Shown here one piece after another: positions 1 through 17,194 of a stretch of DNA of 64,000 nt. The DNA lies in NCBI RefSeq assembly GCF_044324875.1, contig NZ_CP172185.1. One strand, 5' to 3'. The notes below the pieces were generated by a model, which was not told where the DNA came from, made no database searches, and saw nothing but the letters and a program-made list of their open reading frames with translations. The DNA is from Escherichia coli. GTDB taxonomy: Bacteria; Pseudomonadota; Gammaproteobacteria; Enterobacterales; Enterobacteriaceae. A program made the position numbers and the translations under genes. Position 1 is the first letter of the stretch; every line of letters starts with the position of its first letter.

Positions 1-768
1 GATGGCTATCTGTGCCACGCTGGCATTCCTTTCGGCTCCCATTTTTTTCATGGCGGCGGTTAGTCTTTCTATCTGCGGCAGTACTGCGTTATAACTTTCG
101 GCCCGGCCACTCCCGGCAGGCATGGGATGATTTGAATCATAACGACCACTGAGCGCGCCTTGCTCCAGGACCATGTAAGCAAAGAACGTGATGTTATTTT
201 GTCGGCAATAATCAAGGATCCCGGCCTCTTCAGAAGCGCGATAGAGCAGGCTGTAGTGATTTTGTACTGCACTGAGGGAATAACCGGAAGCGTTAAGGAT
301 TTCATTGGCGCGTCTGATTTGTGCCAGATTGTGGTTGGAAACACCTACGCGTTTTACCTTACCGCTTTGTAAAAGTGGGATCAATCCTGGCGTCCATTTT
401 TCGACGTCGAGGGGATTATGGATCCAGTAGATATCAATCGCGTCCACGCCCAAGCGCCCAAGGCTGGCCTCAAGCATATCGCTGACAGGCTGCGCAGACT
501 GCTTGTCCGCAATCTGCGGCGTGAATTTGGTGGATAAAATTATGTTCTCGCGAGGAAACTGACGGACTAATGCTCCCAGCGCAGTCTCGGAACTCCCCAT
601 ACCATATACTGCTGCGGTATCCCAGAGATTGAGGCCCTTACTCATGGCCGCAGTGAACACTTCTGCCATCTGAGTATCAGAAAGATGATTACCAAAGACG
701 GTGTCGCCGCCGGCAAAGCCTGTGCCCCAGGACCATGTACCTAGTGCGACTGGAGGTAGTGTTTTCAT
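1..768 (-). CDS. Aldo-keto reductase family oxidoreductase, 3' end beyond window edge
   Basis: Hand translation of the minus strand from ATG at 768 gives MKTLPPVALGTWSWGTGFAGGDTVFGNHLSDTQMAEVFTAAMSKGLNLWDTAAVYGMGSSETALG... open to position 1 (about 256 codons, no stop). AGGAG ribosome-binding site upstream. Absent from ORF track because it is truncated by the window edge. Confidence 0.75.
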   Translation of the reverse strand, partial: MKTLPPVALGTWSWGTGFAGGDTVFGNHLSDTQMAEVFTAAMSKGLNLWDTAAVYGMGSSETALGALVRQFPRENIILSTKFTPQIADKQSAQPVSDMLEASLGRLGVDAIDIYWIHNPLDVEKWTPGLIPLLQSGKVKRVGVSNHNLAQIRRANEILNASGYSLSAVQNHYSLLYRASEEAGILDYCRQNNITFFAYMVLEQGALSGRYDSNHPMPAGSGRAESYNAVLPQIERLTAAMKKMGAERNASVAQIAI

Positions 769-829
769 ATTCAGCTCCTGAAAAAAGGCCGGATCGTGGC
801 TGACTTAAACCGGCCAAGTAAGGAATTAA

Positions 830-1519
830 TTAAGCTGTCCGGCGGAGTGCATTTAACAGCGCCACACCAACCCCATGTGCTGAAGCGGGATTCTGCCCCG
901 TGATAAGGCGATCGTCGGTAACCACGTTTTCAGACCAGTTTGGAGCTTCATGATAAAGCGCACCATGCTCGCGAAGTGCGGTTTCAAGCAGGAAGGGAAC
1001 CACATCTGTTGTGTGAACTTCTTCCTCTTCCTTGTTGGTAAAGGCCGCCACATTTTTCCCTTTTATCAGGTATTCGCCGCTACTGAGTTTTGCGTCAACC
1101 AATGCCGCAGGCCCGTGGCAGACGGCTGAGACAATCCCATCACTTTCATACACTTCGCGGATAATACGCTGGGCATCCTGATTATCACGGAAATCCCACA
1201 TGGTCCCATGACCACCTGCAAAGAAAACTGCGCTGTAATCGGCACCTTTCAGCTCGGATAACGCAGGTGTTGTTGCCAGGCGCTGCTGAAAATCGGTTTC
1301 GTTCCAGTACCAGGCGTTAACAGGGTCGCTGAGGTTAAATCCATCCACCGGTGGCTGCCCCCCGCGAATACTGGCTATTGTTGTTTTTATTCCGGCATCT
1401 TCCAGTACTTTCAGCGGATGAGTCAGCTCGGCCAGGAAAAAACCGGTTGGTACACCGGATGCGCCTTTAATCGGATGGCTGGAAACGACACATAGCACTG
1501 GTTTATATGCAGGTTTCAT
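830..1519 (-). CDS. DJ-1/PfpI superfamily protein (class I glutamine amidotransferase-like; putative amidase/glyoxalase/hydratase)
   Basis: ORF 830..1531; start moved to ATG at 1519 (MKPAYKPV...) which has a GAGGA ribosome-binding site. Contains the nucleophile-elbow motif AVCHGP typical of DJ-1/PfpI proteins; ~229 aa. Confidence 0.75.
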   Translation of the reverse strand: MKPAYKPVLCVVSSHPIKGASGVPTGFFLAELTHPLKVLEDAGIKTTIASIRGGQPPVDGFNLSDPVNAWYWNETDFQQRLATTPALSELKGADYSAVFFAGGHGTMWDFRDNQDAQRIIREVYESDGIVSAVCHGPAALVDAKLSSGEYLIKGKNVAAFTNKEEEEVHTTDVVPFLLETALREHGALYHEAPNWSENVVTDDRLITGQNPASAHGVGVALLNALRRTA

Positions 1520-1527
1520 ATCGGTCC

Positions 1528-1839
1528 TCACTCTTTATTTTTAAATTCATCGGCGAAGAGATTTTCCCAGTTAATAAAGGAGCCAAGCGGTATACACTCG
1601 AAGCTTAGTAAGCCTGCTTTTGCCAACGGGAATTCGGCCATAACGTTCATCGCTTCATCGACAGAGTCACATTCAAGAAAAATAGCGACGCCAGGTCTGT
1701 CCTGACGGAAGTAGATGTCGCGGATGAAGCCTGATTTATACAATCCCCAGGCGTGCAGAGCTTCAGCGTTGAGGTGCGGAGCATATTTCTCCAGCGATGC
1801 TACAGGGGCAGGGATATCCAGACATAAAATTCGCATCAT
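1528..1839 (-). CDS. Small conserved protein of unknown function, first gene of the operon
   Basis: 103-aa ORF with AGGAG ribosome-binding site; its stop overlaps the alternative GTG start of the DJ-1 ORF (GTGA). Family assignment not possible by eye. Confidence 0.55.
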   Translation of the reverse strand: MMRILCLDIPAPVASLEKYAPHLNAEALHAWGLYKSGFIRDIYFRQDRPGVAIFLECDSVDEAMNVMAEFPLAKAGLLSFECIPLGSFINWENLFADEFKNKE

Positions 1840-1975
1840 AGTCTCCTGAACTCAGGTCGTAGTAGAAAGAGACTAAAGTATAAGAGGCGTATTTCAGGAA
1901 GATTAGAGGGTCATTGACTTAAGCATTTTTAGACTGTACTTAATAATCAGGCGAGAATTGCTTTAGGAAAACATT

Positions 1976-2875
1976 ATGAATAACGCTCTTTATAACCAGA
2001 TTCGCATCTTCCAGAGCATTGCGCGGGAGGGCAATATTTCGGCAGCCGCAAGGAAACTGGAAATTACGCCTCCCTCCGTCAGCAATGCACTAAAGCTGCT
2101 GGAAGAGTATATCGGTCATCCGCTTTTTGTGCGTACGACCCGCCGTATAGAGCTGACGGAAACCGGTCAATTATTGCTGGAACAGACCGCTGCGGCGGTG
2201 GAGTCGCTGGAAAACTCACTTGAAAGCATTCGCGACCAGCATCAGGAGCCCTCAGGGATGGTGCGAATTACGCTCTCGCGTTTTGCCTACCTGTTAATTC
2301 TTAAGCCTGCGATGGCAGAATTCTGTCAGCAATATCCGGGTATACAGTTAGAAATTTCGGTCTACGACGGTACCGTGAATATCATCAAAGAGCGTTTTGA
2401 TCTGGGGATCCGTTTTGGCGATATTCTTGAGGGAGGGGTGGTGGCCCGACCGTTAATGAAACCGTTTCGTGAAGGATTATATGCATCCTCAGCGTATCTC
2501 TCCCGACATGGAACGCCTGAAGTGCCGGCAGATCTCTGTCATCACCAGCTGATTGGTTACCGTTTTATCACCAACAACCGCATCCTTCCGCTGCTCCTGA
2601 ACGATCGCGGTGAGCAGTTGACCGTTGAGATGCCGGGGCAGTTAATCAGCAACGATATTGACGTTATGGCAGACGGGATCCGTAACGGGCTGGGAATTGG
2701 GCGCTTGTTTGAGCCTGTCTGGCAGTTACAGCCGGACAGGGAGCGCTTTATTCCGGTGATGGAGAGCTACTGGAAAACCTACCCGCCAGTGTATCTCTAT
2801 TACCCCAAAAACGCGGGTAAAACGAAAAGAGTGAAGGCCCTGATTGATTTTCTGATATCCACTACGGGGCGATAA
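1976..2875 (+). CDS. LysR-family transcriptional regulator, divergent from the small-protein/DJ-1/AKR operon
   Basis: 299 aa; N-terminal helix-turn-helix region (IFQSIAREGNISAAARKLEITPPSVSNALKLLEEYIGHPLF) and LysR-type co-inducer domain; divergent arrangement typical of LysR regulators. Confidence 0.85.
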   Translation: MNNALYNQIRIFQSIAREGNISAAARKLEITPPSVSNALKLLEEYIGHPLFVRTTRRIELTETGQLLLEQTAAAVESLENSLESIRDQHQEPSGMVRITLSRFAYLLILKPAMAEFCQQYPGIQLEISVYDGTVNIIKERFDLGIRFGDILEGGVVARPLMKPFREGLYASSAYLSRHGTPEVPADLCHHQLIGYRFITNNRILPLLLNDRGEQLTVEMPGQLISNDIDVMADGIRNGLGIGRLFEPVWQLQPDRERFIPVMESYWKTYPPVYLYYPKNAGKTKRVKALIDFLISTTGR

Positions 2876-3166
2876 AGACGATAACGCCTCGTTCGGTATG
2901 GAGATGCATCGAATGGCATTGTGAGTTTTTTTTCACAGATGGGCGTAATCGTCAGTGGATTTTACATACAAGGATAGCGCCCACATACTGACATCATTAA
3001 TTAACGTTGGGTGAGGTTTACCGGGGGGAGGGGAAAGCGAACCAGGAGATGGAGGTGGCCAATCTGGTACGAACCGCCGCGTAGCTTGCACGGCAAAAGC
3101 TGCTGACTGATTCATCAGTTAAGCTACTGAAAGAGCGGAACACATGAACTTAAGAACAAACCCACC

Positions 3167-3197
<31 letters not shown>

Positions 3198-3273
3198 ATA
3201 TAAACCAAGGGAGAATCCAGTCGTTGGCGGTCATGATTGTCCTGCTCATTAACAACGACCAAAACCCCATATC

Positions 3274-4458
3274 TTACTTAATACCGTATTCTCGGCTTAA
3301 CCGGCCGTGCAACCTCAACACATTGGTTTCAACTGCCGTCACCACGTTCTCCGGAAAATCTGTCGGTAATGAAGTCTTCACGTTATCCAGTGCTGCCGGA
3401 ATCATTCTGGCAAAGTCACTCAGGATTTCATGCATCTGCACTTCCGGAAATTTCAGCAACTTTGCTGTCGCCAGAAAATGTCGCGGATAAATTTTATCGA
3501 TTGCCGTTTTTTTGCCTTTGGATGCGTTAAGCCCCATTGCCAGTTTGAACCACTGGAACACCTGAAACTTCATAAAATCATAGCGATCTTTCAGCGCCTC
3601 GCTGGACCCCATCAAAAAAGCCATGATCCGCGCGATGCCTGGGCCTCCATCTGATTCATATTTCACCGATGAAGTTAAACCGAATGTCTGACACATATCC
3701 TCCTGTGGCAAGCGAAGTAAAACCGTTCGCTCAGCATTCCAACGCCTGTCAAAACGTTCGACCGCTAACGCGCGCACATTCCCCGCTTTAATGATTTCTG
3801 CGTCCGGCACATTCAACCCAAGTTCTTTCGCCAGCAGCAGACAGTAATACTCATTATCAACGCTTTGGCTGAGATCGAGCGTCGCATTGGGCTGCCTGAT
3901 TTCGCCAATCGGTAATTTAATGATGTGCGTCGTCGGCGTTATTCCTTTCGGAATGCACCAGTCATTGCCTATTCTGAGCAGCGCTGTCTTCTCCTGCGCG
4001 CCAGCAACCGAGATGCGAAAGTCATTTTCTTCTCTAATCATGCCCAGAGGGATATCTGCTTTATAAGCCGTTAATACTTCTTCAAGTCTGGCTTCAGTAA
4101 GCTTTTCCCATGCCATTATCGGATGCGTTACGGTTTCGTCTTCGGGTATTAACGTCACGGCACCAACGCTGTCTCGCCCTATTTCTGACAATAAATCAAA
4201 CGGTTGTCTGGATTTGGCATGATAACGTTTAACGATCCGGTCACGTACAATCGGGCTATCGGGTAACAGATTATCGAAGAAGTTAAATACGGCATCAGAG
4301 GTGATATTCCCCCTCTGCAATGGCAGCGAAAGTGACAACGGTCTGGCATAACGGCTGGCTAACCACTCCGGTGCATACTTAAAGGTGTGCGCGCCGTTGG
4401 CTAACTTCGTTAACTCGCCTACCCGCTGGTTGTTCATCCAAGTGACAAGTTTAGGCAT
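3274..4458 (-). CDS. hipA: HipA serine/threonine kinase toxin homolog with in-frame internal deletion of ~46 residues (catalytic core missing)
   Basis: N-terminus MPKLVTWMNNQRVGELTKLANGAHTFKYAPEWLASRYARPL and C-terminus LRLHGRLSREYG.K match HipA. Product is 394 aa versus 440 aa for K-12 HipA. At the junction ...KFQVFQW-FK-LAMGLNASKGKK the segment recalled as LIGATDGHAKNFSVF...GIHISDL is absent. Start reassigned from ORF-track 4515 to ATG at 4458. Confidence 0.85.
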   Translation of the reverse strand: MPKLVTWMNNQRVGELTKLANGAHTFKYAPEWLASRYARPLSLSLPLQRGNITSDAVFNFFDNLLPDSPIVRDRIVKRYHAKSRQPFDLLSEIGRDSVGAVTLIPEDETVTHPIMAWEKLTEARLEEVLTAYKADIPLGMIREENDFRISVAGAQEKTALLRIGNDWCIPKGITPTTHIIKLPIGEIRQPNATLDLSQSVDNEYYCLLLAKELGLNVPDAEIIKAGNVRALAVERFDRRWNAERTVLLRLPQEDMCQTFGLTSSVKYESDGGPGIARIMAFLMGSSEALKDRYDFMKFQVFQWFKLAMGLNASKGKKTAIDKIYPRHFLATAKLLKFPEVQMHEILSDFARMIPAALDNVKTSLPTDFPENVVTAVETNVLRLHGRLSREYGIK

Positions 4459-4724
4459 TACCACTCCAGATCTTGCTGTTCTGTTGATTCTGGCGAGGCA
4501 TTTTTCGCGTCGCATAGCGTCATTGAGAGTTCAAGCGACTGTAAAATCTTAAAAAATGTCGTGAGCGTGGTATTGTCAGGGTTGTTTTCGAAATTGGAAA
4601 TTGTCGCCTGCTTAATACCGATTTTTTTCGCCAGCTCGCTCTGCGTCCAGCCATTTTGCTGACGAACCAGTTTCATTGCATTCGCTAATTGCGTTGGGTT
4701 ATAGATCTTCTGAAAGCTCATCAT
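4458..4724 (-). CDS. hipB: HipB antitoxin / HTH-XRE transcriptional repressor
   Basis: 88 aa MMSFQKIYNPTQLANAMKLVRQQNGWTQSELAKKIGIKQATISNFENNPDNTTLTTFFKILQSLELSMTLCDAKNASPESTEQQDLEW; stop overlaps the hipA ATG by 1 nt as in the known hipBA operon. Confidence 0.9.
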   Translation of the reverse strand: MMSFQKIYNPTQLANAMKLVRQQNGWTQSELAKKIGIKQATISNFENNPDNTTLTTFFKILQSLELSMTLCDAKNASPESTEQQDLEW

Positions 4725-4745
4725 GTCATACGTCCACAGCATATT

Positions 4746-4859
4746 TATCCGCTCAAGGGGATATTATCAGTTTTATCCTTTAGTGGGGATAAAGTCAATC
4801 AGGAAACACATCTTATCCGCTGTACGGGATAAACGCTGCGATATCCTCGATCGCGGATA
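4746..4859 (-). promoter_or_regulatory. hipBA promoter-operator region with four HipB operators (TATCC-N8-GGATA)
   Basis: Four exact copies of TATCC-N8-GGATA at 4746..4763, 4774..4791, 4814..4831 and 4842..4859, immediately upstream of hipB. Confidence 0.8.
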
Positions 4860-4907
4860 AAAGGAAGGCTTAAGCCGCATGCCATCTCGACATGCGGCTT
4901 ATACGGT

Positions 4908-7900
4908 TTACCAGCTATATTTCACTCCCAGCATGCCCTGAGTATCGCTATAGCCTTTATCACCTAGTTGCACACCGACATTCCCCCACAGGCTAAGGTT
5001 GTTATTTACTTTCGCCTCAACCCCGGTACGTACTTCACCGAGATTACGCGCACCATCACGGCTTACGGTTTGACCATTCATCTTCACTGCGTAGACTTTG
5101 CTGTTGTTGATCCAGTTCGCTTCAATGTAAGGCTGGAACTCACGCTGTTTACCATCGTCACGCTGGTGATGGCTGTTCAGGTAGGTTTTCACCCCAAGTC
5201 GCGTTTGCACGTTTCCGTCGCCTTCCGTTTCAATGCGTGTTCCGTCTTTCCGGGTATGGTCAGAATCTTTCACACCCATCCAGGTGATTTGTACCTGTGG
5301 CTGGACGTACCAGGTATTCAGCGTCCCTTCGCTGCCGCTAAAAGTTCCCGCTTCAAAGGTATACCCACCCTCAACAGAGGCCGTCACACCGCGAGAATCA
5401 TAGTCGTCAGCAGAACGGTTATCGGAACTGACGCTGTTATCAAACCAGTTATACAGCGCCCAGCTGTCAACATAAGCGCCGGTCTTATTCGCATCGTTCT
5501 GATACCAGGTCGCGTACAGTCCTGCGCTGTAACCGCTGATGCGCCCATCCGATTTATAACCCACACGATTACTCTGAGTATTACTGTGCTGATTGGCGTA
5601 GCCTGCCATCACGCCAAGATGCCAGCGATCCTGCGCGTTGCTACTCCACTGCGCCAAATCGCCTCCTAGCTGCAATACATAGCGGTTAGCCTGAGTATTT
5701 AGCTGGCCGTCACCGGTCCTGAAACGTTCGTGCCCCCCGACATGACGCATCCACATACTGCTTGCCGAACCCTGAGAATGCAGTGAATCTGTATACTGCG
5801 GCTCACCCAGACGGTCGTGTAAGCGATGGCTAAACAGCGAGTTGGCTGCGGCAATGTTGCTGATATAGCTTCCGGCCTCCGGGCGATAAACTGATGGGCC
5901 TTCCGGATCCACAACAGGGGGATTATTGATGGGATCGGGTGTATCCGGTGGCGTTACGCCTTCCCATTTACTGGTCAGATACCAGTTTTTCTCGTCATTC
6001 CCCTTCCCTTTAGCCAGCGTGTAGACGTAAGCCCCAGCTTCGACAGTTCCGGTGGTCAGCGCGAAGTTACCTGCAGAATTACCGCCAACCTCAATGAGTT
6101 CAATACCGTTGACCGTTTGTGCACCGACGCCGCCAATGTTATCAACCCGAACGCGAGTGTTCCCTTGGGTATCGCCTTTCACGTTCATCTTATCGGTGGG
6201 CGAATTATCGCCGCCCAGCGTCGCGTTGAACGTCATCAGGCCATTGTTTCCATTATAGTTACCGTTAACGGTCAGTACATTCCCCGGTTTCCCCCCTTCG
6301 CTGTTCATTTGAACCGTGCCACCATTCTCCAGGTTACCGCCGACAGTGGTTTTAGCGACACGCAGTGTCCCCCCTGGCATAACGTTCACATCACCTGCAG
6401 TGGTGACATTTCCCGACATCACACCGCTGTTATGGATATTAATGTGCTGACTTGCCATATTAATGGCAGAGTCGGAACCGAAAGCAATTTCACCACCCAC
6501 GATATCCGTCGTACCCTGATACGCCGCGGAATCGTTGTTAAGAGTCAGGATCCCGGTACCCAGTTTTGTCACATCACCGCTACCGCTGATACTGTGCGTC
6601 ATCGCCCAGCTACGCTCAGTGGAGATGGTGAGCAGGCCATTATTGATAACGGAAGCATCACCCAGGTTTTTCTGATCGTTGACGCTGAGCGCGCTGCCTG
6701 TATCAATGTTGAATTGCCCCACAAAGCGGCTATTATCGCCATCCAGCTCTACATCTGTCCTGGCGGTTGCGCTCACGATACCCTTCCCGCTTATGCTATT
6801 ACGCAGTTCTCCAGTCACGTTTTTTAGCGTTAACAGACCGTCATTGGCAATATTTCCTCTGCCTAACCCCTGCGTATTATCGAGGCTGACTTCCGCATTT
6901 GGGCTAATGCTGGTTAACGCATTGTAGCGTGCATTAAGCCCCTCGATAGCCAGTGTTCCCCCTGTAACATTCAGGTTTCCGCCACCTGTCAGTTCACCCT
7001 GACTGATCCCACCTTTATTTACCGTGAGCGCCCCCTCTTTGAACAAAACAGTCGAACCCATCTGCCCGGTGAATGTCTCTACCGTCTGCGTCGATCCATT
7101 AAGATCGACGATGGCCGCGTTGCTGATGTTCAGTTCCCGGGTGTTGCCAAGTGCACCATCCGCATCGGTACGTAATGTCCCCATCTGAACGTAGGTTGCC
7201 CCCTGATAGTCGTTCTGACCGTTGGAAAGCGAAACCTGTCGTACCGTATTGATTGCCAGATCCCCTTCACCACCGATTTTTGCCGACATATCGGCTGTTG
7301 CGCCATAGGCTCCGCCATGTTCGGCTAACGTCAGCTTTTGCCCACCATGGATGTTCAGCGCTTTCAGCCCATAGTTAACGTACAAACCATCACCTGGTGC
7401 GGTCGTGAGGCGGAATCCATAATCACCCTCGGCGACCACTGTTCCGTTTTGTGCAATGTGTAACTTTTTGTCCGCTTCCACCGCGTCGCCCTGTAAATCA
7501 CGTAACGTTAATGAGCCACCCGATCCAATAACCGTTTGCGCCTTCACCAGTTGAACGCCGACATGGCTATCATCGTGTTCCAGCAAATTGAGCGTCGTCA
7601 GAGGGTTATTCGCCATGGGATCATTCCACGGTTTAGGCACGTCGATAAGCACGTCGCCCATCCCGTTTACCTGATAGTTACGGCCTTTCCAGGTGTAGTC
7701 ACCCGTGCCGACAACCAGCGTATCGACGCTGATATATCCCTCCGCAAGCGTCGCAGCAGGTATATCCGTATCGAAAGTGAGCGTACCGCCATTCATGGCT
7801 AGTCCACCAATGGATTGCTCTCCCACTTTTACCGATGTGGTATTTTCACTGTCAGACTGAAGCATCGCGTGAGTAAGCGCAGCGGTGTTGTCGCGTTCCA

Positions 7901-9723
7901 GTGTGAAGGTACTGTCTTTCAGTTGGGCAACACCGGCGAATTCAGTTCCTGTTGCATGGGTAAAGCCAAACATTTTGTCGGAGGATGACAGCTGCACTCG
8001 CATCAAGCCATCGCCTTTGAGCGCATTGGTCAGCGTGTAATCTCCTGCACTGTTCGTTGATGCGAGAATGTCGAGCGTACCGGGGCTTGCAATGGTTACT
8101 TCACTCGAACCCATGCCTGTTACCCCATCTGCCGTATGTGACGCAATAGTCAGGAGGCCGTCATTGACCAGCGTTTTACCACTATAAGTATTCCCTGCAT
8201 TGAACACCGTATGGCCTGCATCATGCATCACTTTTCCGTCTTTATCGTCACCCGTAATCAGCATATCGACCTGGTAGCCGGCATCACTGTTATTAGTATG
8301 ATTAAAGACAAAAACGCCTTCGCCAAGACCAAACTCCACTTTCGTCGCATTGGTGATAAACCCGGCATCTGCCGCCGCCTCACCGTGAGCAGCACCAATG
8401 TTTAGCGTTCCTACAGCAGGTTCAAAAACACCTAAGTAAACTTCTCCACCTTCGACATTCAACGTGCCGTTATTCGTCAGGGTTAACGTACCCGTGCCTG
8501 TCGTCCCTACGTTCATATTGAATGTTTCAAGAAGAGAGTTCTGCCCATCCACCCGCACGTCGCCCTTACTTTTGTCATTGAGAGCTATTTGTGTATCACG
8601 CGCTTTAACTATACCTCCGGTGGTAATATTCAGTTCACCCGTGCCTAATACACCGACCTGTAGCAATTGGGCGTTAGTAGATGACGTTTTTAAATTCCAG
8701 AGACTATCCGTTGAAATATTAACTATCCCCTTACCGGAGGCATTTCCTCCGATAAATCCATAGCCCGTTGAATTAAGAGTGGCACCATTACTGACATTTA
8801 CGATGCCGCTACCAAAATTACCGACATTGATACCTACAGTATCGAACGATGATGTCGCATCCATCAGGTTCAGTGTGCCGATACCGCTTGCTTTATCGCC
8901 CAAAAAAGTAATATTTTGCGATACGAACTTACCGCCATCGCTGATATTGAGGTTTCCGACACCCGCAACACCAATGGTGGTATAGACATTCTTATTGACC
9001 TCCCACATCCCCCCCGTGGTGATGCTGACATTCCCGACGCCGGTTTCTCCATAACCGAGTGAGCTTCCTCCGTTGCTGACAACAAGCCCCTCATTACTGA
9101 TATTCATTTCGCCGTGGCCGTCATAACCAAGATTAGTTCCGAGATTAGTGATAACGGAGTTCTTATCCTTAATAGTAATGTTGCCTGTGCCTGTTTCTTT
9201 CATCCCCGCAGTGATAATTCCCGAATCTACTTTTCCTTCACTCGAGACATTAAGTTCACCGTCGCCAGCATCACCGATATAGATATAGCGGAAAGCTTCG
9301 CCCGTTCCGAGGAAATTCCAATGCCCTTTATCGGTCACGTTGACGACACCGTGGGACCCGTCCTGAACGCCCACAAATGAATATTCTTTGTTATTAATCA
9401 GTCCATTATTGGAAATATTGACTTTGCCATTACCGAAATATCCATTATAGAGTCTGCGTACCGTGATAACAGAGTCTTGATCCTGCACATTCAGGGTTCC
9501 GATACCGGTGGCATTGCCACCGATAATCGTATTTTCAGCCGTAATCAGCCCCCCCTCGCGAATAGTCGCTTCCCCCGTGCCTTGATTGCCAATTTGAAAT
9601 TCAATTGAGGAATCATTATTTTTTATTAGCCACTCGCCACCCTTTTCAACGACAACCTTACCATTGCTGTTCGCCTGATATCCTACAATGGCGACGATTG
9701 AACTCGTGACGTAACCCTTATCC
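4908..9723 (-). pseudogene. yneO: Autotransporter adhesin (YdeK/YneO-like) truncated at its 5' end by IS1; no signal peptide
   Basis: 1609-aa ORF whose first 5 codons lie inside the IS1 end (TTG start at 9737). Gly/Asn/Thr-rich repetitive passenger and a C-terminal beta-barrel ending ...GMLGVKYSW. N-terminus MAASPDKGYVTSS... has no signal peptide. Symbol given by synteny (between hipB and lsrK). Confidence 0.8.
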
Positions 9724-9778
9724 GGTGATGCTGCCAACTTACTGATTTAGTGTATGATGGTGTTTTTGAGGTGCTCCA

Positions 9779-10054
9779 GTGGCTTCTGTTTCTATCAGCT
9801 GTCCCTCCTGTTCAGCTACTGACGGGGTGGTGCGTAACGGCAAAAGCACCGCCGGACATCAGCGCTATCTCTGCTCTCACTGCCGTAAAACATGGCAACT
9901 GCAGTTCACTTACACCGCTTCTCAACCCGGTACGCACCAGAAAATCATTGATATGGCCATGAATGGCGTTGGATGCCGGGCAACTGCCCGCATTATGGGC
10001 GTTGGCCTCAACACGATTTTACGTCACTTAAAAAACTCAGGCCGCAGTCGGTAA
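9779..10054 (+). CDS. insA: IS1 InsA
   Basis: 91 aa [51 protein letters not shown]... Confidence 0.95.
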
Positions 10055-10476
10055 CCTCGCGCATACAGCCGGGCAGTGACGTCATCGTCTGCGCGGAAAT
10101 GGACGAACAGTGGGGCTATGTCGGGGCTAAATCGCGCCAGCGCTGGCTGTTTTACGCGTATGACAGGCTCCGGAAGACGGTTGTTGCGCACGTATTCGGT
10201 GAACGCACTATGGCGACGCTGGGGCGTCTTATGAGCCTGCTGTCACCCTTTGACGTGGTGATATGGATGACGGATGGCTGGCCACTGTATGAATCCCGCC
10301 TGAAGGGAAAGCTGCACGTAATCAGCAAGCGATATACGCAGCGAATTGAGCGGCATAACCTGAATCTGAGGCAGCACCTGGCACGGCTGGGACGGAAGTC
10401 GCTGTCGTTCTCAAAATCGGTGGAGCTGCATGACAAAGTCATCGGGCATTATCTGAACATAAAACACTATCAATAA
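9973..10476 (+). CDS. insB: IS1 InsB (transposase made as InsAB' by -1 frameshift)
   Basis: 167-aa ORF overlapping insA in the -1 frame; the A-run frameshift site TTAAAAAACTC lies in the overlap. Confidence 0.9.
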
Positions 10477-10729
10477 GTTGGAGTCATTACCGAAAATTAC
10501 CATCATCATATTTAACAAAGAATAGCACTAATTGCTAAAAAAAGAAGTTTATTAAACCCCTTTTTCATCCATTAATGCCTTTAGGAATATTCGATATAAA
10601 ATAAGGGTTATGCTTAATGCTTTAAGAAAAATAGCAATTTCCCCTTGAATATATTACGGGCGATGGAACGATGAATCTGCAAGCTGGCATTTAACAAACC
10701 AGCTCTAAAAGAAGGGAAATAAGAATACT

Positions 10730-10764
10730 CAAAAAACAGCCACGGTCATCATGATGTGGCTGTC
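10730..10764 (-). terminator. Putative Rho-independent terminator downstream of lsrK
   Basis: Minus-strand hairpin CAGCCAC...GTGGCTG followed by a T-run (GTTTTTTG), just 3' of the lsrK stop. Confidence 0.5.
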
Positions 10765-10771
10765 AATGAAA

Positions 10772-12364
10772 CTATAACCCAGGCGCTTTCCATAACGACG
10801 TCGTCAGTCCATGATCAACCAGCCCCAGCTGATCCTGATAAACTGCCTGCCACTTATCCCGTGAATCCTGATAAAGTTCATGCTTTTCCGGGTCTGGTGT
10901 GTGCGTCCGTTCCCAGCGAACCAGGCGTTCTCCGGTTTCTGCCATTGATGAAAAAATTCCGGCACCGACGCCAGCTGCAATGGCACATCCTAATGCGGTG
11001 GCTTCTTTGACCACCGGAATATTGACGGGTAATCCCGAGACATCAGCGAGAATTTGACTCCATAATTTCCCTTTTGAACCTCCGCCTGCAAAGACTAACG
11101 ATGAAGGATGAATATTCGAGAAATCAGCGATTTGTTGCAAATTACACGCTGATACAATCGCCGCATTTTCTTCCAGCGCACGGAACAACGTCGCTTTGTT
11201 ACATTTATCCGGATCAATAGACAAATTAATAAAGGAAGGCGCAGCGTGATACCAGGTTTTAAAGCGCATTCTGTCGGAGAATATCGGCATTACGCCCCAC
11301 GACCCAGGCGGCACCCGACTTGCCATCTCTTCCAGCAGCGTATAGGTGTCGATGCCTAAACGTTCGGCAATCAGTTTTTCTTCGGCACAGAAAGCATCGC
11401 GGAACCAGCGCATGGTGAGTCCGGTAAAAAAGCTTATAGATTCAGCTTGTACCATGCCAGGAATAACATGAGGATTAACGCGCACGTTCATTTCTGGGTC
11501 TGTCACCGGCGCGGCTAAGTTTACAACTTGCTGCCAGAATGTGCCGCCAAGAACAGCGGTTTGTGCCGGACGCACAACGCCTAACCCCAGGCAACCAAGT
11601 TGCACGTCGCCTCCTCCAACGACCACCGGAGTGCCCGCCTTCAGACCGCAGAGTTCCGCCGCTTGTGAACTTACCACGCCCAGCAATGTGCCGGTTTCTT
11701 TGACAGGAGAAAGAATATCGGCCCGCAGTCCGGCCATATCCAGCAATGCAGGTTTCCAGTCACGGGTGGTTAGGTCAAGAAGTCCCGTGGTGCCAGCGTT
11801 AGAGGGATCCACCGCCAGTTCGCCGCTGAGCATATAGGCCAGCCAGTCGCTGATCATGGTGATGGTCGACGCCTGTCGGTAGATATCAGAACGATGGTGC
11901 GCCAGCCAAAGTAATCTGGGAATAGCGCTTAAAGCCAGCGTTTGTCCGGTGGCGCGATAAACTTCGTTTTCAAAGGTATTGTTGTGCAGTTCTTTAAGTT
12001 CGCTAACTTCGCGCGCCGCTCTGGCATCCACATTGGCGCAGGCCCAGATCGGTGTTCCTTCATTGTTATATAAAACAATGCCTTCGCGCATCGAACATGC
12101 CGAAACGGCAGCGATATACTCCGGGGCTATGCCGGCGTTGTGCAGCGCCTGGCGCATACACTCACACGCCAGTTGCCAGTTTTTGTTGAGATCAAATTCC
12201 ATAGAACCAGGAACGTCCGGTACTGCCAGATGCCGCCACTCCGCCTGTCCCACTGCTATTTGATTGCCTTCCAGGTCGAATATCACAGCCCGAATACTTC
12301 CGGTGCCTGCATCCAGCGCCATCAGGTAGTACTTTGATTCTGAAGGGGTAAAGAGTCGAGCCAT
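10772..12364 (-). CDS. lsrK: Autoinducer-2 kinase
   Basis: 530 aa, FGGY carbohydrate-kinase fold, N-terminus [35 protein letters not shown]; synteny with lsrR and lsrACDBFG. Confidence 0.95.
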
Positions 12365-12442
12365 TAGATTATCCTCGGCTTATGCGTTCTGTCTGTTCCT
12401 CTATACGTTCTCCATCATTCCCGGTAATAAGGTCATGCAAAT

Positions 12443-13396
12443 TTAAATACGTAAAATCGCCGCTGCTGTGTCCTGATCGGTAACCAGTGCGTTGATATAG
12501 CCGCCTTTCATTGCAGCGGCAATGGCTTCGGCTTTATTTTCTCCCCCTGCCACACCAACCCGGACGGGAATGGTCTTCAGCGCGCTTAAAGGTAAGCCAA
12601 TCAGTTCGTTATGTATTTTAATATCCGTGACAACGTCACCTTTTGCATCAAAAAAGTAGCCTAAAATGTCGCCAACCGCCCCTTTTCGACCAATCATTAA
12701 CTGTTCGCCCTGGCTGATATAGCCGGAGCGAATGATTGTTGCGTCGTCTTGTTGACTCACAGCCCCAATGCCGACAATCGCCACATCCGCTGCTTGCGCG
12801 GCTAGCAGAACGTCTTTGACGCAATTTTCATTTTTTAGCGTACGGGCAATGTCAGCGGAGGATGCCCGCAACGGAGCCGGAATAATATTCACACTGCACG
12901 CCGCGTTAAGCTGCCCGATACCCGTCATATAAGAACCGACGCCACCGGAGAGCGTGACCAGGCGAATTTGCTGTGACGAAATAAAACCACTTAAGCGTTG
13001 CAGCGTATTCATGGTTGCCTCGCCAAAACCAATCGCCAGCATCTGTTGTGGTTGAAGTAAACTCATCAACATATGCGCCGCGCCTATCCCCAGTCGCCCG
13101 CCGACATCAGCATCCGCAAGCCCAGGGATCACCCGGACATGTTGTAGCGAAAACTGACGACGTAATTGTGTTTCATATTCCAGACAGCCTTCAAAGCGAG
13201 AATTAATCTGCACGCGAATAATGCCGGACTGATGCCCTTTCTCCAGTAATCGCGACACTTTCAAACGGGTCAGCCCGAGACGATCGCTGATCTCGCTCTG
13301 GGTCAGCCCGTCGTGGTAGTAAAACCACGCGATCCGCGCGACCTGTTCTTCTTCACACATTCCCTGTTCTGAAATTGCCGAATCGTTGATTGTCAT
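12443..13396 (-). CDS. lsrR: lsr operon repressor (SorC family)
   Basis: 317 aa; N-terminal HTH ([31 protein letters not shown]) plus sugar-phosphate-binding domain. Confidence 0.95.
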
Positions 13397-13644
13397 AATT
13401 CATTCTTCACTTTGAACATATTTAAATCTTTAATGCAATTGTTCAGTTCTTGCGCATTTATATCTGTGATAGCAACCACAGTTTGACTCTACGAGCATGA
13501 ACAAACGCAACCGTGAAAATCAAAATAGCATAAATTGTGATCTATTCGTCGGAAATATATGCAATGCCCGCCTAAGGTTATGAACAAATTAAAAGCAAAA
13601 ATACATTTGTTCAAAACTCACCTGCAAAACTGAACGGGGGAAAT
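13397..13644. promoter_or_regulatory. lsrR–lsrA divergent promoter region with a CRP-like site
   Basis: 248-bp AT-rich intergenic region between divergent lsrR and lsrA; TGTGATAGCAACCACA at 13465..13480 resembles the CRP consensus TGTGA-N6-TCACA. LsrR operator positions not resolved. Confidence 0.5.
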
Positions 13645-15180
13645 ATGCAAACGAGTGATACCCGCGCGTTACCGCTACTTTGCGCCCGCTCGGTTTATAA
13701 ACAGTATTCAGGGGTTAATGTCCTGAAAGGCATCGATTTTACGTTGCACCAGGGGGAGGTCCACGCCCTGCTCGGCGGCAATGGTGCCGGTAAATCGACG
13801 TTAATGAAGATTATTGCCGGTATTACCCCTGCTGATAGCGGTACGCTTGAGATTGGGGGCAACAACTACACCAGATTAACGCCAGTTCATGCTCATCAGC
13901 TGGGCATTTATCTCGTTCCCCAGGAACCGCTGCTTTTTCCAAGCCTGTCGATAAAAGAAAACATCCTGTTTGGTCTGGCAAAAAAACAACTCTCCATACA
14001 GAAAATGAATAACTTGCTGGTGGCGCTGGGCTGCCAGTTTGATCTGCATAGTCTGGCAGGATCGCTGGATGTCGCCGATCGCCAAATGGTGGAAATCCTC
14101 CGTGGGCTGATGCGCGACTCGCAGATTCTGATCCTCGATGAACCTACCGCCTCGCTTACCCCTGCGGAAACCGAACGCTTGTTTAGTCGCTTGCGGGAGC
14201 TGCTTGCTACTGGCGTGGGTATTGTTTTTATCTCGCATAAGCTGCCGGAAATTCGCCAGATTGCCGATCGGATTAGCGTGATGCGCGACGGAACTATCGC
14301 CTTAAGCGGCAAAACCATCGAACTGTCTACCGACGACATTATTCAGGCCATCACGCCAGCGTTACGGGAAAAATCGCTCTCTGCCAGCCAAAAATTATGG
14401 CTGGAGTTACCTGGCAACCGCCCACAACATGCCGCCGGAACGCCGGTGCTGACACTGGAAAACCTGACCGGCGAAGGTTTTATGAATGTCAGCCTGACGC
14501 TTAATGCCGGAGAAATTCTGGGGCTGGCTGGGCTGGTGGGGGCCGGACGCACAGAACTGGCCGAGACGCTCTATGGTCTGCGTACTTTGCGTGGCGGACG
14601 CATTATGCTGAATGGTAAAGAGATCAATAAATTATCCACTGGAGAACGTTTACTGCGCGGTCTGGTTTATCTGCCGGAAGATCGCCAGTCATCCGGACTG
14701 AATCTCGATGCTTCGCTGGCCTGGAATGTCTGCGCCCTTACTCATAACCTTCGTGGATTCTGGGCGAAAACCGCGAAAGATAACGCCACACTGGAACGTT
14801 ATCGTCGGGCGCTGAATATTAAATTTAACCAACCGGAACAAGCTGCGCGGACCTTATCCGGCGGCAACCAGCAAAAAATCCTGATTGCCAAATGTCTGGA
14901 AGCCTCGCCGCAAGTATTGATTGTCGATGAGCCGACGCGCGGCGTGGATGTCTCAGCCCGTAATGATATCTACCAGCTGTTGCGCAGCATCGCCGCACAG
15001 AATGTGGCAGTGCTGCTTATCTCCTCTGATCTGGAAGAGATCGAACTGATGGCAGATCGCGTATATGTGATGCATCAGGGCGAAATTGCCCACTCTGCAC
15101 TGACCGGACGCGATATTAATGTCGAGACCATTATGTGCGTTGCCTTCGGCGATAGTCAGCGTCAGGAGGCGTCATGCTGA
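13645..15180 (+). CDS. lsrA: AI-2 ABC transporter ATP-binding protein (two ATPase domains)
   Basis: 511 aa; Walker A motifs GGNGAGKST and GLVGAGRTE, signature LSGGNQQK. Confidence 0.95.
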
Positions 15181-16202
15181 AATTTATTCAGAACAACCGT
15201 GAAATCACGGCACTGCTGGCGGTGGTGCTGCTGTTTGTATTACCCGGTTTTCTCGACCGCCAGTATTTAAGTGTGCAAACGCTGACCATGGTTTATAGCA
15301 GCGCGCAAATCCTGATCCTGCTGGCAATGGGCGCGACGCTGGTAATGCTTACGCGCAATATTGATGTATCAGTGGGTTCGATTACCGGAATGTGCGCGGT
15401 GCTGTTGGGGATGTTACTGAACGCAGGATATTCACTACCTGTTGCCTGTGTCGCGACTTTACTGCTTGGTTTGCTCGCGGGATTTTTCAACGGTGTCCTG
15501 GTCGCGTGGCTAAAGATCCCTGCCATTGTTGCCACCCTTGGCACGTTAGGGTTGTACAGAGGCATCATGTTGCTGTGGACTGGCGGCAAATGGATTGAAG
15601 GGTTACCCGCCGAACTGAAACAGCTCTCCGCACCGCTGCTGTTTGGCGTTTCCGCGATTGGTTGGTTGACGATAATTCTGGTGGCATTTATGGCCTGGCT
15701 GCTGGCAAAGACGGCGTTTGGACGCAGTTTTTATGTCACGGGCGATAATTTACAGGGCGCTCGTCAACTGGGCGTTCGTACGGAAGCCATTCGCATTGTG
15801 GCATTTTCGTTGAACGGCTGCATGGCGGCACTGGCGGGAATTGTGTTTGCTTCGCAGATTGGTTTTATCCCCAACCAGACCGGTACCGGGCTGGAGATGA
15901 AAGCAATTGCAGCCTGCGTGCTGGGCGGCATTAGTTTGCTCGGCGGTTCCGGCGCGATCATCGGTGCGGTATTAGGCGCATGGTTCCTGACGCAGATCGA
16001 TAGCGTACTGGTGCTGTTGCGCATTCCGGCATGGTGGAACGATTTTATCGCGGGCCTCGTGCTGCTGGCGGTGCTGGTGTTTGATGGACGCCTGCGTTGT
16101 GCGCTGGAACGTAATCTGCGGCGGCAAAAATATGCCCGCTTTATGATGCCACCGCCATCCGTTAAACCCGCTTCGTTAGGTAAAAAACGGGAGGCCGCAT
16201 AA
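15174..16202 (+). CDS. lsrC: AI-2 ABC transporter permease
   Basis: 342 aa polytopic membrane protein; overlaps lsrA by 7 nt. Confidence 0.95.
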
Positions 16203-17194
16203 TGCGTATTCGCTACGGTTGGGAACTGGCTCTTGCCGCACTGCTCGTTATTGAGATTGTCGCATTTGGTGCAATTAACCCGCGGATGTTAGATCTCAAT
16301 ATGTTGCTGTTCAGCACCAGTGACTTTATCTGCATTGGCATTGTCGCCCTACCGCTGACGATGGTGATTGTCAGTGGCGGGATCGATATTTCGTTTGGTT
16401 CGACCATCGGCCTCTGCGCCATTGCATTGGGCGTACTGTTTCAAAGTGGTGTGCCGATGCCGCTGGCGATTCTCCTGACCTTACTGCTCGGCGCATTGTG
16501 CGGGCTGATCAACGCCGGATTAATTATCTATACCAAAGTTAACCCGCTGGTGATTACGCTTGGCACGCTGTATCTGTTTGCCGGAAGCGCCCTGCTGCTT
16601 TCCGGGATGGCCGGAGCGACGGGGTACGAAGGTATTGGTGGATTCCCGATGGCGTTTACAGATTTCGCTAACCTGGATGTGCTGGGACTCCCTGTTCCGC
16701 TGATTATCTTCCTGATATGTCTCCTCGTTTTCTGGCTCTGGCTGCATAAAACCCATGCCGGACGTAACGTGTTTTTAATTGGGCAAAGCCCGCGTGTGGC
16801 GGTTTATAGCGCGATTCCAGTTAACCGCACCTTGTGTGCGCTCTATGCCATGACGGGGCTGGCGTCTGCGGTCGCCGCTGTGCTGCTGGTATCGTATTTT
16901 GGTTCAGCACGTTCCGATCTCGGTGCGTCGTTTCTGATGCCCGCCATCACCGCCGTAGTGCTCGGCGGTGCCAATATTTATGGTGGTTCTGGTTCCATTA
17001 TCGGCACCGCCATTGCGGTTTTATTAGTGGGATATTTGCAACAAGGTTTGCAAATGGCAGGAGTGCCAAATCAGGTGTCCAGCGCCCTTTCCGGTGCGCT
17101 ACTTATCGTCGTTGTCGTAGGTCGTTCCGTTAGCCTGCATCGCCAGCAAATTAAAGAGTGGCTGGCGCGTCGGGCCAATAACCCATTGCCATAA
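16202..17194 (+). CDS. lsrD: AI-2 ABC transporter permease
   Basis: 330 aa polytopic membrane protein; 1-nt overlap with lsrC. Confidence 0.95.

Follow-up and report, generated by a model that had tools for sequence, protein, structure and literature searches.

An adhesin gene of Escherichia coli truncated at an IS1 element: a probable adjacent deletion with its precursor in a sister isolate

How does the gene for a large surface protein come to begin inside an insertion sequence? In the window – the whole stretch of 64,000 nucleotides of Escherichia coli DNA analysed here – an open reading frame of 1609 aa (4908-9737, minus strand) starts with TTG GCA GCA TCA CC/G GAT AAG. Because this start reads TTG GCA GCA TCA CC, its first 14 nt (9724-9737, minus strand) are recognizable as the reverse complement of the left end of IS1, which provides what looks like the start codon and, with it, 4 2/3 codons in all. 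The crossing at 9723/9724 and the IS1 origin of the TTG, both proposed by an earlier sequence-only reading, are thus correct. What remains (4908-9723, minus strand) begins at the third base of codon 202 and ends with the stop codon, carries passenger repeats and a C-terminal beta-barrel, and is the remnant of a type Va autotransporter of the ECSE_1600 family (yneO locus).

Type Va autotransporters comprise a repeat-rich passenger and a C-terminal translocator, a beta-barrel of 12 strands, and both are present in the window frame: TIGR01414 (barrel) matches residues 1149-1609, TIGR04393 repeats occur in seven stretches, and the Pfam families Pertactin, AC_1 and Autotransporter match the identical product. 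Assignment to the yneO/ydeK family, made at first from the letters only, is supported by the position of the locus between hipB and lsrK and by the NCBIfam profile NF011422 (ECSE_1600 family), whose cut-off of 2335 is exceeded with a score of 3695.9 bits. Residues 6-1609, however, cover profile positions 203-1806 only. Positions 1-202 are missing, and Pfam finds neither ESPR nor any other match within residues 1-300 of the frame: the signal peptide that had been described as absent is indeed absent. The public record (WP_395762482.1 / XJR43014.1) nevertheless annotates the 1609-aa frame as a normal CDS, 'ECSE_1600 family autotransporter'.

If the family ordinarily began at this point, nothing would need explaining. 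Full-length homologues are instead 1806 aa long and begin with an ESPR signal peptide; no full-length homologue starting at the position of the IS1 junction was found. In the intact protein of the lineage ESPR occupies residues 1-47 (E = 7e-15), that is, within the deleted segment. The size of the missing 5' segment, which the sequence-only reading had left to an alignment with full-length genes, was obtained from E. coli ECA64, whose intact 1806-aa gene aligns with 3 mismatches and no gaps over 6177 nt. Relative to this IS-free genome 846 bp are absent: 241 nt upstream of the gene and 605 coding nt, which encode residues 1-202 and with them the ESPR signal peptide. The remaining 1604 codons are undamaged.

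The element at the junction is a complete, IS1A-like IS1 of 768 bp (9724-10491, plus strand), identified from its end matches, the terminal inverted repeat at either end and the undamaged InsA/InsAB' frame (9779-10476). Members of the IS1 family are ~768 bp long, with imperfect terminal inverted repeats of ~23 bp (GGTGATGCTGCCAACTTACTGAT and GGTAATGACTCCAACTTATTGAT), and encode insA (91 aa, a zinc-ribbon protein) and an overlapping insB', from which InsAB' arises by programmed frameshifting. Here both ends were read directly, and the insA frame (9779-10054) and the overlapping insB' frame (9973-10476) are both intact. The IS1 of E. coli LF3-1 (L001), described in RefSeq as 'IS1-like element IS1A family transposase' with programmed frameshift, differs by 3 mismatches (99.6% over a 771-nt alignment), and PF03811 (Zn_ribbon_InsA) matches an IS1 fragment, identical to the window IS1, in a sister isolate (L014, below). 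A search of the window with IS1 end sequences gave matches at 9724-9788 and 10447-10491 (both plus strand) and at a second copy (48448-49215, minus strand), and nowhere else.

A simple IS1 insertion carries a target-site duplication (TSD) of 8-9 bp on either side. The second copy, just after speG, is such an insertion and provides an internal control: CACAATAG stands on both sides as an 8-bp direct repeat. The two copies are identical at 768 of 768 positions, from which it follows that IS1 is active in this genome. Around the first copy re-inspection of both flanks found no repeat, in agreement with the earlier description: CCCTTATCC (9715-9723) stands to its left and GAAAATTAC (10492-10500) to its right, and the two are without similarity. 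Inversion between the oppositely oriented copies was considered as a cause of the loss and rejected, the flanks of the first copy being collinear with one locus in IS-free genomes; that the second copy has a TSD of its own further rules it out.

Comparison with IS-free sequence shows where each flank comes from. CCCTTATCC occurs once in the IS-free gene, there followed by GTAATATT, and GAAAATTAC is present as a single copy, reading CAATAAGAAAATTACCATC. Beyond the element the window (10492-15645) corresponds to 11871-17024 of the related record L003, with which the leftover lsrK-adhesin intergenic DNA distal to the deletion (10501-10771) is collinear. The upstream neighbour lsrK (autoinducer-2 kinase; 10772-12364, minus strand), placed from the ORF list and syntenic annotation, is intact and co-directional with the adhesin gene. 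Elsewhere in the neighbourhood a 413-aa ORF overlapping hipA has no exact protein record; the true HipA, of 394 aa, is on record.

These comparisons bear on two trivial accounts: that the element is a simple insertion whose TSD has decayed, or that a collapsed IS1 joins unrelated contig ends in a faulty assembly. IS copies are a classic cause of misassembly, which makes the latter a generic possibility. Yet the 846 bp found in all IS-free relatives are absent here, and the structure is therefore not a simple insertion; nor do CCCTTATCC and GAAAATTAC share any similarity. Both IS1 flanks derive from one locus in the same orientation, and the left junction recurs in independent short-read assemblies (the L008 contig, three samples), so that it is not an artefact of the window assembly. 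The missing 846 bp and the L008 junction together refute both accounts, to which we attach almost no credence.

If the deletion grew out of an IS1 already resident upstream, then relatives should exist in which that element precedes an intact gene. Such a relative is L014 (GCA_027920925.1; the contig occurs in four samples), which shows 100% identity with window 1908-9724 and with nt 1-128 of IS1. Its adhesin gene is intact, encoding all 1806 aa, and 250 nt ahead of the ATG stands this IS1, oriented as in the window; the left end of the element borders on GTAATTTTCTTATTG, with gcatcacc followed by gtaattttcttattg across the junction. The left flank in L014 is thus GAAAATTAC, the very 9 bp found at the right end of IS1 in the window, which identifies GAAAATTAC as the original target duplication. 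The first copy accordingly has no direct repeat because a later deletion removed the left copy of GAAAATTAC, which the precursor retains. The sister isolates L014, L008 and L009 show 0 SNPs relative to the window across 7.8-9.4 kb; IS-free sisters exist as well (L010-L013). Zero differences over 7817 nt from a sister with the intact gene also confirm that the frame is otherwise undamaged; the claim that the event is recent is supported by the zero substitutions relative to the sisters.

A second isolate suggests that the same IS1 end may have been used more than once. L009 is 100% identical to window 1-9395 and has an IS1 end joined at 9395 (codon 312), 328 bp deeper in the gene; as in L008, the IS1 terminus is kept to its last base. 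Both L014 and L009 are draft contigs that end inside IS1: the right junction is observed in the window and inferred for these two (in L014 the right end would adjoin GAAAATTACCATC). The L009 junction may also be an independent simple IS1 insertion at 9395, since its right junction is unseen. Taken together, L014, L009 and the window support, at the level of sequence, the signature expected of deletions extending from one fixed IS end. Neither window junction occurs exactly in any of 5426 complete E. coli genomes; where a match had full coverage, it was put together from separate segments or involved another IS1 variant, offset by 4 bp.

The reading that we favour, with a probability of about 0.7, is that IS1 inserted upstream of the gene and that its transposase then promoted an adjacent deletion, leaving a null remnant of the adhesin. 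The first step, documented by L014, was an insertion in an ancestor of the clone: IS1 entered the AT-rich DNA between lsrK and the adhesin gene, 241-250 nt before the start codon, and duplicated GAAAATTAC while the gene still encoded an intact 1806-aa ECSE_1600-family autotransporter. In the second, the outcome of which is seen in the window, the left end of the resident IS1 was joined to CCCTTATCC at codon 202 inside the gene, CCCTTATCC being the target attacked and hence the deletion endpoint. The 855 bp lost comprise 605 coding nt, 241 bp upstream and the left duplication copy. The agent would probably be IS1 transposase, working intramolecularly (replicative transposition within one DNA molecule, or adjacent deletion). 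The element itself remained where it was together with its right flank, the surviving copy of the TSD, and is therefore now without a direct repeat. An adjacent deletion predicts a complete IS, a deletion that starts exactly at the IS terminus and no TSD, all of which are observed; together with the absent 846 bp and a precursor that has the IS1 at the same site and in the same orientation beside an intact gene (0 differences over 7817 + 128 nt), these support the suggestion of an IS1-mediated adjacent deletion in place of a simple insertion.

The same structure could be reached in two steps, by a second IS1 inserting at codon ~202 in the orientation of the upstream element and RecA-dependent recombination then removing the interval together with one IS1. 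The product would be identical to that observed – one IS1, flanks from two insertions, no TSD – and the sequence fits both routes. Where TSDs are missing, the literature invokes adjacent deletions or, as the other common cause, recombination between IS elements (PMC11708052). The identity of the two window copies attests to active IS1, and the adhesin gene and its upstream region have been hit repeatedly: in LF3-1 by an IS1 with an 8-bp TSD (GAGTCCTC) 69 bp away, in 2018-02-2CC (L002) by one with TSD ATTATCATC offset by 4 bp, and in 46 of 5426 complete genomes the 5' flank is separated from lsrK by an IS1. To account for the endpoints of both window/L008 and L009, however, this route needs two same-orientation insertions and two recombinations within a 0-SNP clone. 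The N-terminal fragments predicted for two-IS1 intermediates, six in all for a TSD of 8, 9 or 10 bp at both endpoints, have no exact record among ~15 billion proteins, which is a weak negative. We thus consider recombination between two insertions an unlikely origin.

The adjacent deletion has well-known counterparts. Deletions in the gal region described by Reif & Saedler in 1975 are reportedly the classic IS1-promoted adjacent deletions, and Turlan & Chandler (1995) are said to have worked out aspects of the mechanism. IS-mediated adjacent deletion is transposase-dependent and RecA-independent. The window shares with such deletions (general pattern in PMC11708052) an intact resident IS, a deletion that departs from the exact IS terminus, an unchanged opposite flank, no TSD, a precursor with the IS already in place and, should the L009 junction also be a deletion, more than one endpoint at the same IS end. 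In the long-term evolution experiment each IS-associated deletion was preceded by an IS at its site, and it was common for the deletions to become larger with time (PMC11708052). Compared with laboratory selections, the IS-free state, the precursor and two apparent endpoints are here found in natural isolates of one clone; otherwise the events are of the same kind. The insertions in LF3-1 and 2018-02-2CC have the same IS1 orientation and lie within 69 bp and 4 bp of the two window junctions, but unlike the window they carry 8- or 9-bp TSDs and their flanking DNA is complete; the element in 2018-02-2CC is a divergent IS1 variant. E. coli K-12 yneO (formerly ydeK/ydeU), an AIDA-I-type protein gene of the same NF011422 family at the same hipB-lsrK locus, is inactive too, there through a frameshift or an internal stop as opposed to an IS1-associated 5' deletion; in an MG1655 derivative the locus is a frameshifted pseudogene. 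Among the papers listed by literature searches on protein and gene names, the matches were unrelated and none was a functional study of this ECSE_1600-family (yneO) autotransporter.

A further question concerns the fate of the remnant. It lacks the DNA upstream with the ribosome-binding site, the start codon, ESPR and some ~140 residues at the beginning of the mature passenger; it would not be exported by the Sec pathway and would be a functionally null allele, and the 1609-aa frame with its TTG start would be an accident of reading frame accepted by annotation pipelines. The sequence-only reading held that both the 5' coding region and the promoter had been removed: the coding loss stands (605 nt), while removal of the promoter is presumptive, because a consensus scan of the native upstream region located none. 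It also allowed for outward transcription from IS1, an idea that lacks sequence support, since the same kind of scan found no minus-strand promoter-like site at the junction. Were transcripts arising in IS1, or reading through it, to express the truncated gene nonetheless, the product might be a passenger-barrel fragment in the cytoplasm with a residual or new role. The 4.8-kb frame is fully open; lsrK is co-directional, so that read-through across IS1 is conceivable; and the IS1 terminus on the minus strand is TTGGCA, IS1 ends being able to donate -35 elements to fusion promoters, as they do at other loci (PMC9330008). Against this, besides the missing promoter-like site, no -10-like hexamer can be read 16-18 nt after TTGGCA, and the TTG has no Shine-Dalgarno sequence, the bases upstream of it, AATCAGTAAG, containing no match. 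The open frame is explained by recency (0 substitutions relative to the sisters) and does not require selection. A type Va autotransporter without a signal peptide is not known to reach the outer membrane. An expressed fragment with a role is thus very improbable and, since neither an outward promoter nor a ribosome-binding site was found, the truncated allele is most probably null, with expression probably lost.

Listed publicly as an ordinary autotransporter, the signal-less frame would lead virulence and adhesin inventories to count a dead gene. The biology itself is familiar: IS1 adjacent deletion is a textbook route of gene loss, and nothing changes for IS1 or for autotransporters. Within this near-SNP-free clone the same 5.4-kb adhesin gene shows at least four independent null alleles – the IS1 deletion to codon 202, the IS1 junction at codon 312, a CAA to TAA change at codon 471 and a 524-bp frameshift deletion – plus one upstream IS1 insertion. 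Recurrent selection to lose or silence a surface protein, with the upstream IS1 as a ready-made generator of deletions, is a doubtful explanation; if it were true, the recurrent loss could reflect, for example, targeting of the adhesin by phages or the immune system. Alternatively, the gene may be decaying neutrally as a large target for mutation. For teaching, the clone offers a clean natural series of a resident IS eroding its neighbourhood, from the IS-free state through IS1 upstream to two apparent deletion endpoints, and the junctions might serve as sub-typing markers for the lineage.

The first 14 nt of the 1609-aa reading frame (4908-9737, minus strand), TTG GCA GCA TCA CC, match the IS1 left terminus read in reverse complement, and G GAT AAG follows them; the TTG start, as the sequence-only reading had stated, lies within IS1. 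The frame belongs to NF011422, the ECSE_1600 family autotransporter of NCBIfam (3696 bits; cut-off 2335), and aligns only from residues 6-1609 to profile positions 203-1806, with the passenger repeats still in place and TIGR01414 matching the C-terminal barrel. It is located between hipB and lsrK; at this position an MG1655 derivative carries a family member that a frameshift has turned into a pseudogene, K-12 yneO (formerly ydeK/ydeU). The 5' region of the locus and its upstream DNA (1284-nt query) are present in 4130 of 5426 complete E. coli genomes, the nearest being ECA64 and CB6837 (99.9% identity), both O77g strains (PMC13248637, PMC13188871) with an intact gene of 1806 codons.

Alignment to the full-length ECA64 gene defines the loss. 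Window 3548-9724 corresponds to positions 4849-11025 of the ECA64 locus (3 mismatches, 0 gaps), and window 10492-15645 to positions 11871-17024. Because the G at 9724 both begins IS1 and continues the adhesin gene, the match at this base is coincidental and positions 11025-11870 of the ECA64 locus are therefore missing: 846 bp, of which 605 nt are coding (all of codons 1-201 plus two bases of codon 202) and 241 nt precede the ATG. The deletion of the 5' coding region proposed earlier is thus borne out. Lost with it are the ESPR signal peptide, the start codon and the ribosome-binding site, along with the 241 bp of upstream DNA nearest the gene. The missing N-terminus (MNRIYRVIWN...) matches Pfam ESPR over residues 1-47 (E = 7e-15), and the window frame has no Pfam match within its first 300 residues, in keeping with the claim that it has no signal peptide. 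With the cleavage site placed by eye near residue 62, the mature passenger is shortened by about 140 residues.

An exact-match search of the whole window found each IS1 end sequence twice: at 9724-9788 and 10447-10491 (plus strand; copy 1), and at 49151-49215 and 48448-48492 (minus strand; copy 2). Since both of its ends are matched, copy 1 is a complete 768-bp IS1 (9724-10491), with insA (9779-10054) and insB' (9973-10476) intact. Copy 2, identical to copy 1 at 768/768 positions, lies right after the speG stop codon, ahead of ynfC, and is a simple insertion between two CACAATAG (an 8-bp duplication). Copy 1 is flanked by the 9-mers CCCTTATCC and GAAAATTAC, which show no repeat, as had been claimed; because the identical copy 2 has its duplication, this absence is a genuine peculiarity of copy 1. 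That the two copies do not differ suggests that IS1 has been active recently in this genome. Absence of a target-site duplication arises from adjacent deletions or from recombination between IS copies (PMC11708052). Inversion between the two window copies is ruled out, both flanks of copy 1 being collinear with ECA64, and misassembly of the junction is ruled out by independent short-read contigs.

Evidence for an adjacent deletion now exceeds that available to the sequence-only reading: a precursor is found among natural isolates, together with a probable second endpoint. Sister isolates of the window clone were found in public assemblies through the exact 394-aa HipA protein; further exact look-ups used the reconstructed full-length protein, the 1609-aa product and two variants of it shortened at the start. 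Sister contigs differ from the window by no more than one substitution across the shared 7-9.7 kb. Three (L011-L013) are IS-free at the locus and have an intact adhesin gene. In L014 (GCA_027920925.1; contig in 4 samples) IS1 lies upstream of the gene: the contig opens with 128 nt of IS1 left end (100% identity to the window IS1), the terminal ...gcatcacc is joined to gtaattttcttattg... (in window plus orientation, CAATAAGAAAATTAC followed by IS1), and the intact 1806-aa gene begins 250 nt beyond. The left flank of this IS1 is the same 9-mer as the right flank of the window IS1, and is present as a single copy in IS-free genomes; taken together, these two flanks reconstruct an ordinary IS1 insertion that duplicated the 9 bp GAAAATTAC. 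L008 (SRR31072984; contig in 3 samples) has a junction identical to that of the window, and in L009 (SRR31121307; 2 samples) the IS1 end is joined to window position 9395, in codon 312, 328 bp deeper. At both junctions the IS1 terminus is kept to its last base.

IS1 adjacent deletion is a standard mechanism, known since the 1970s. The starting state would be a resident IS1 upstream of an intact adhesin gene, as in L014; transposase would then move the left end of this element into the adjacent gene, deleting 855 bp in the window lineage and, if the right junction is that of the window, 1183 bp in the L009 lineage. Given the precursor, the probable second endpoint and the complete termini, direct intramolecular transposition by the resident element (a classical adjacent deletion) is the best reading of the window junction, with a probability of roughly 0.7; the earlier proposal of an adjacent deletion in place of a simple insertion is thereby supported. 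Homologous recombination between the resident IS1 and a second copy inserted in the same orientation would give an identical product, and yet it would be required twice in a clone without substitutions and is thus less parsimonious. The N-terminal fragment proteins predicted for its intermediates (8-, 9- and 10-bp duplications, both endpoints) were absent from public proteins by exact look-up, which counts slightly against it, and we consider this route unlikely. That an IS1-associated deletion arose from an L014-type precursor, whichever the route, is very likely. In the long-term evolution experiment all IS-associated deletions were preceded by an IS at the same site, and they were often enlarged over time (PMC11708052). 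The window case is a standard one of a known mechanism, in a gene often found as a pseudogene.

Outward transcription from IS1, raised earlier as a means of expressing the remnant, found no backing: there is no sigma-70-like site on the minus strand at or near the junction. Nor does the sequence ahead of the TTG, AATCAGTAAG, contain a Shine-Dalgarno match. IS1 ends can supply the -35 element of fusion promoters at other loci (PMC9330008); here the terminus reads TTGGCA, and no -10-like hexamer lies 16-18 nt after it. Read-through across IS1 from the co-directional lsrK is possible. Even if translated, a type Va autotransporter that lacks its signal peptide has no means of crossing the inner membrane, and for this reason the allele is regarded, from its sequence, as null. 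Of the 5' coding sequence and promoter said to have been removed, the former is gone; loss of the latter we can only infer, since a consensus scan of the native upstream region gave no candidate. The window shows 0 differences from sisters with an intact gene, which upholds the view that the rest of the frame is intact and the event recent, and it is because of this recency that the 4.8-kb frame is still open. The observed junction of the adhesin with IS1 was confirmed in all details. The source record, on a 5.75-Mb contig, lists the IS1-started frame as a normal CDS, 'ECSE_1600 family autotransporter' (WP_395762482.1 / XJR43014.1), with no pseudogene mark; this is an annotation error and deserves a flag.

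IS1 repeatedly strikes this spot, being found between the adhesin 5' part and lsrK in 46 of 5426 complete genomes. In LF3-1 an IS1 lies 69 bp from the window left junction (8-bp duplication GAGTCCTC), and in 2018-02-2CC (NZ_AP021896.1) a divergent IS1 at 2295-3075 of the locus L002 (left end GGTAATGCTGCC..., 9-bp duplication ATTATCATC) lies in the same orientation 4 bp from the upstream site of the window lineage; this offset suggests that the AT-rich spacer between lsrK and the adhesin gene is a local hot spot for IS1. The gene is often inactivated by other means: a frameshift in K-12, an internal stop in LF3-1 and an IS3-family element in 2018-02-2CC. Among IS-free sisters, L010 has a CAA to TAA nonsense change at codon 471 (L010 position 1677, window 8918) and L005-L007 a barrel-proximal 524-bp frameshift deletion (window 5345-5868) with AG microhomology at its bounds. 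That one clone has several null alleles of independent origin may reflect selection against the adhesin, or else a large mutational target with no such selection; because hipA and, in L012 and L015, a LysR-type regulator gene also carry deletions in some sisters, general decay is favored.

The deletion in the regulator gene (window 1976-2875) removes 570 bp, equivalent to window 2176-2745, and leaves a 108-aa product. Window hipA (3277-4458, minus strand) has an in-frame deletion of 138 bp (46 codons) relative to ECA64, with its breakpoint near 3548, and encodes 394 rather than 440 aa; hipB beside it is intact. The 394-aa variant is common to all sister isolates, and the public collection lists the exact protein in 246 blocks.
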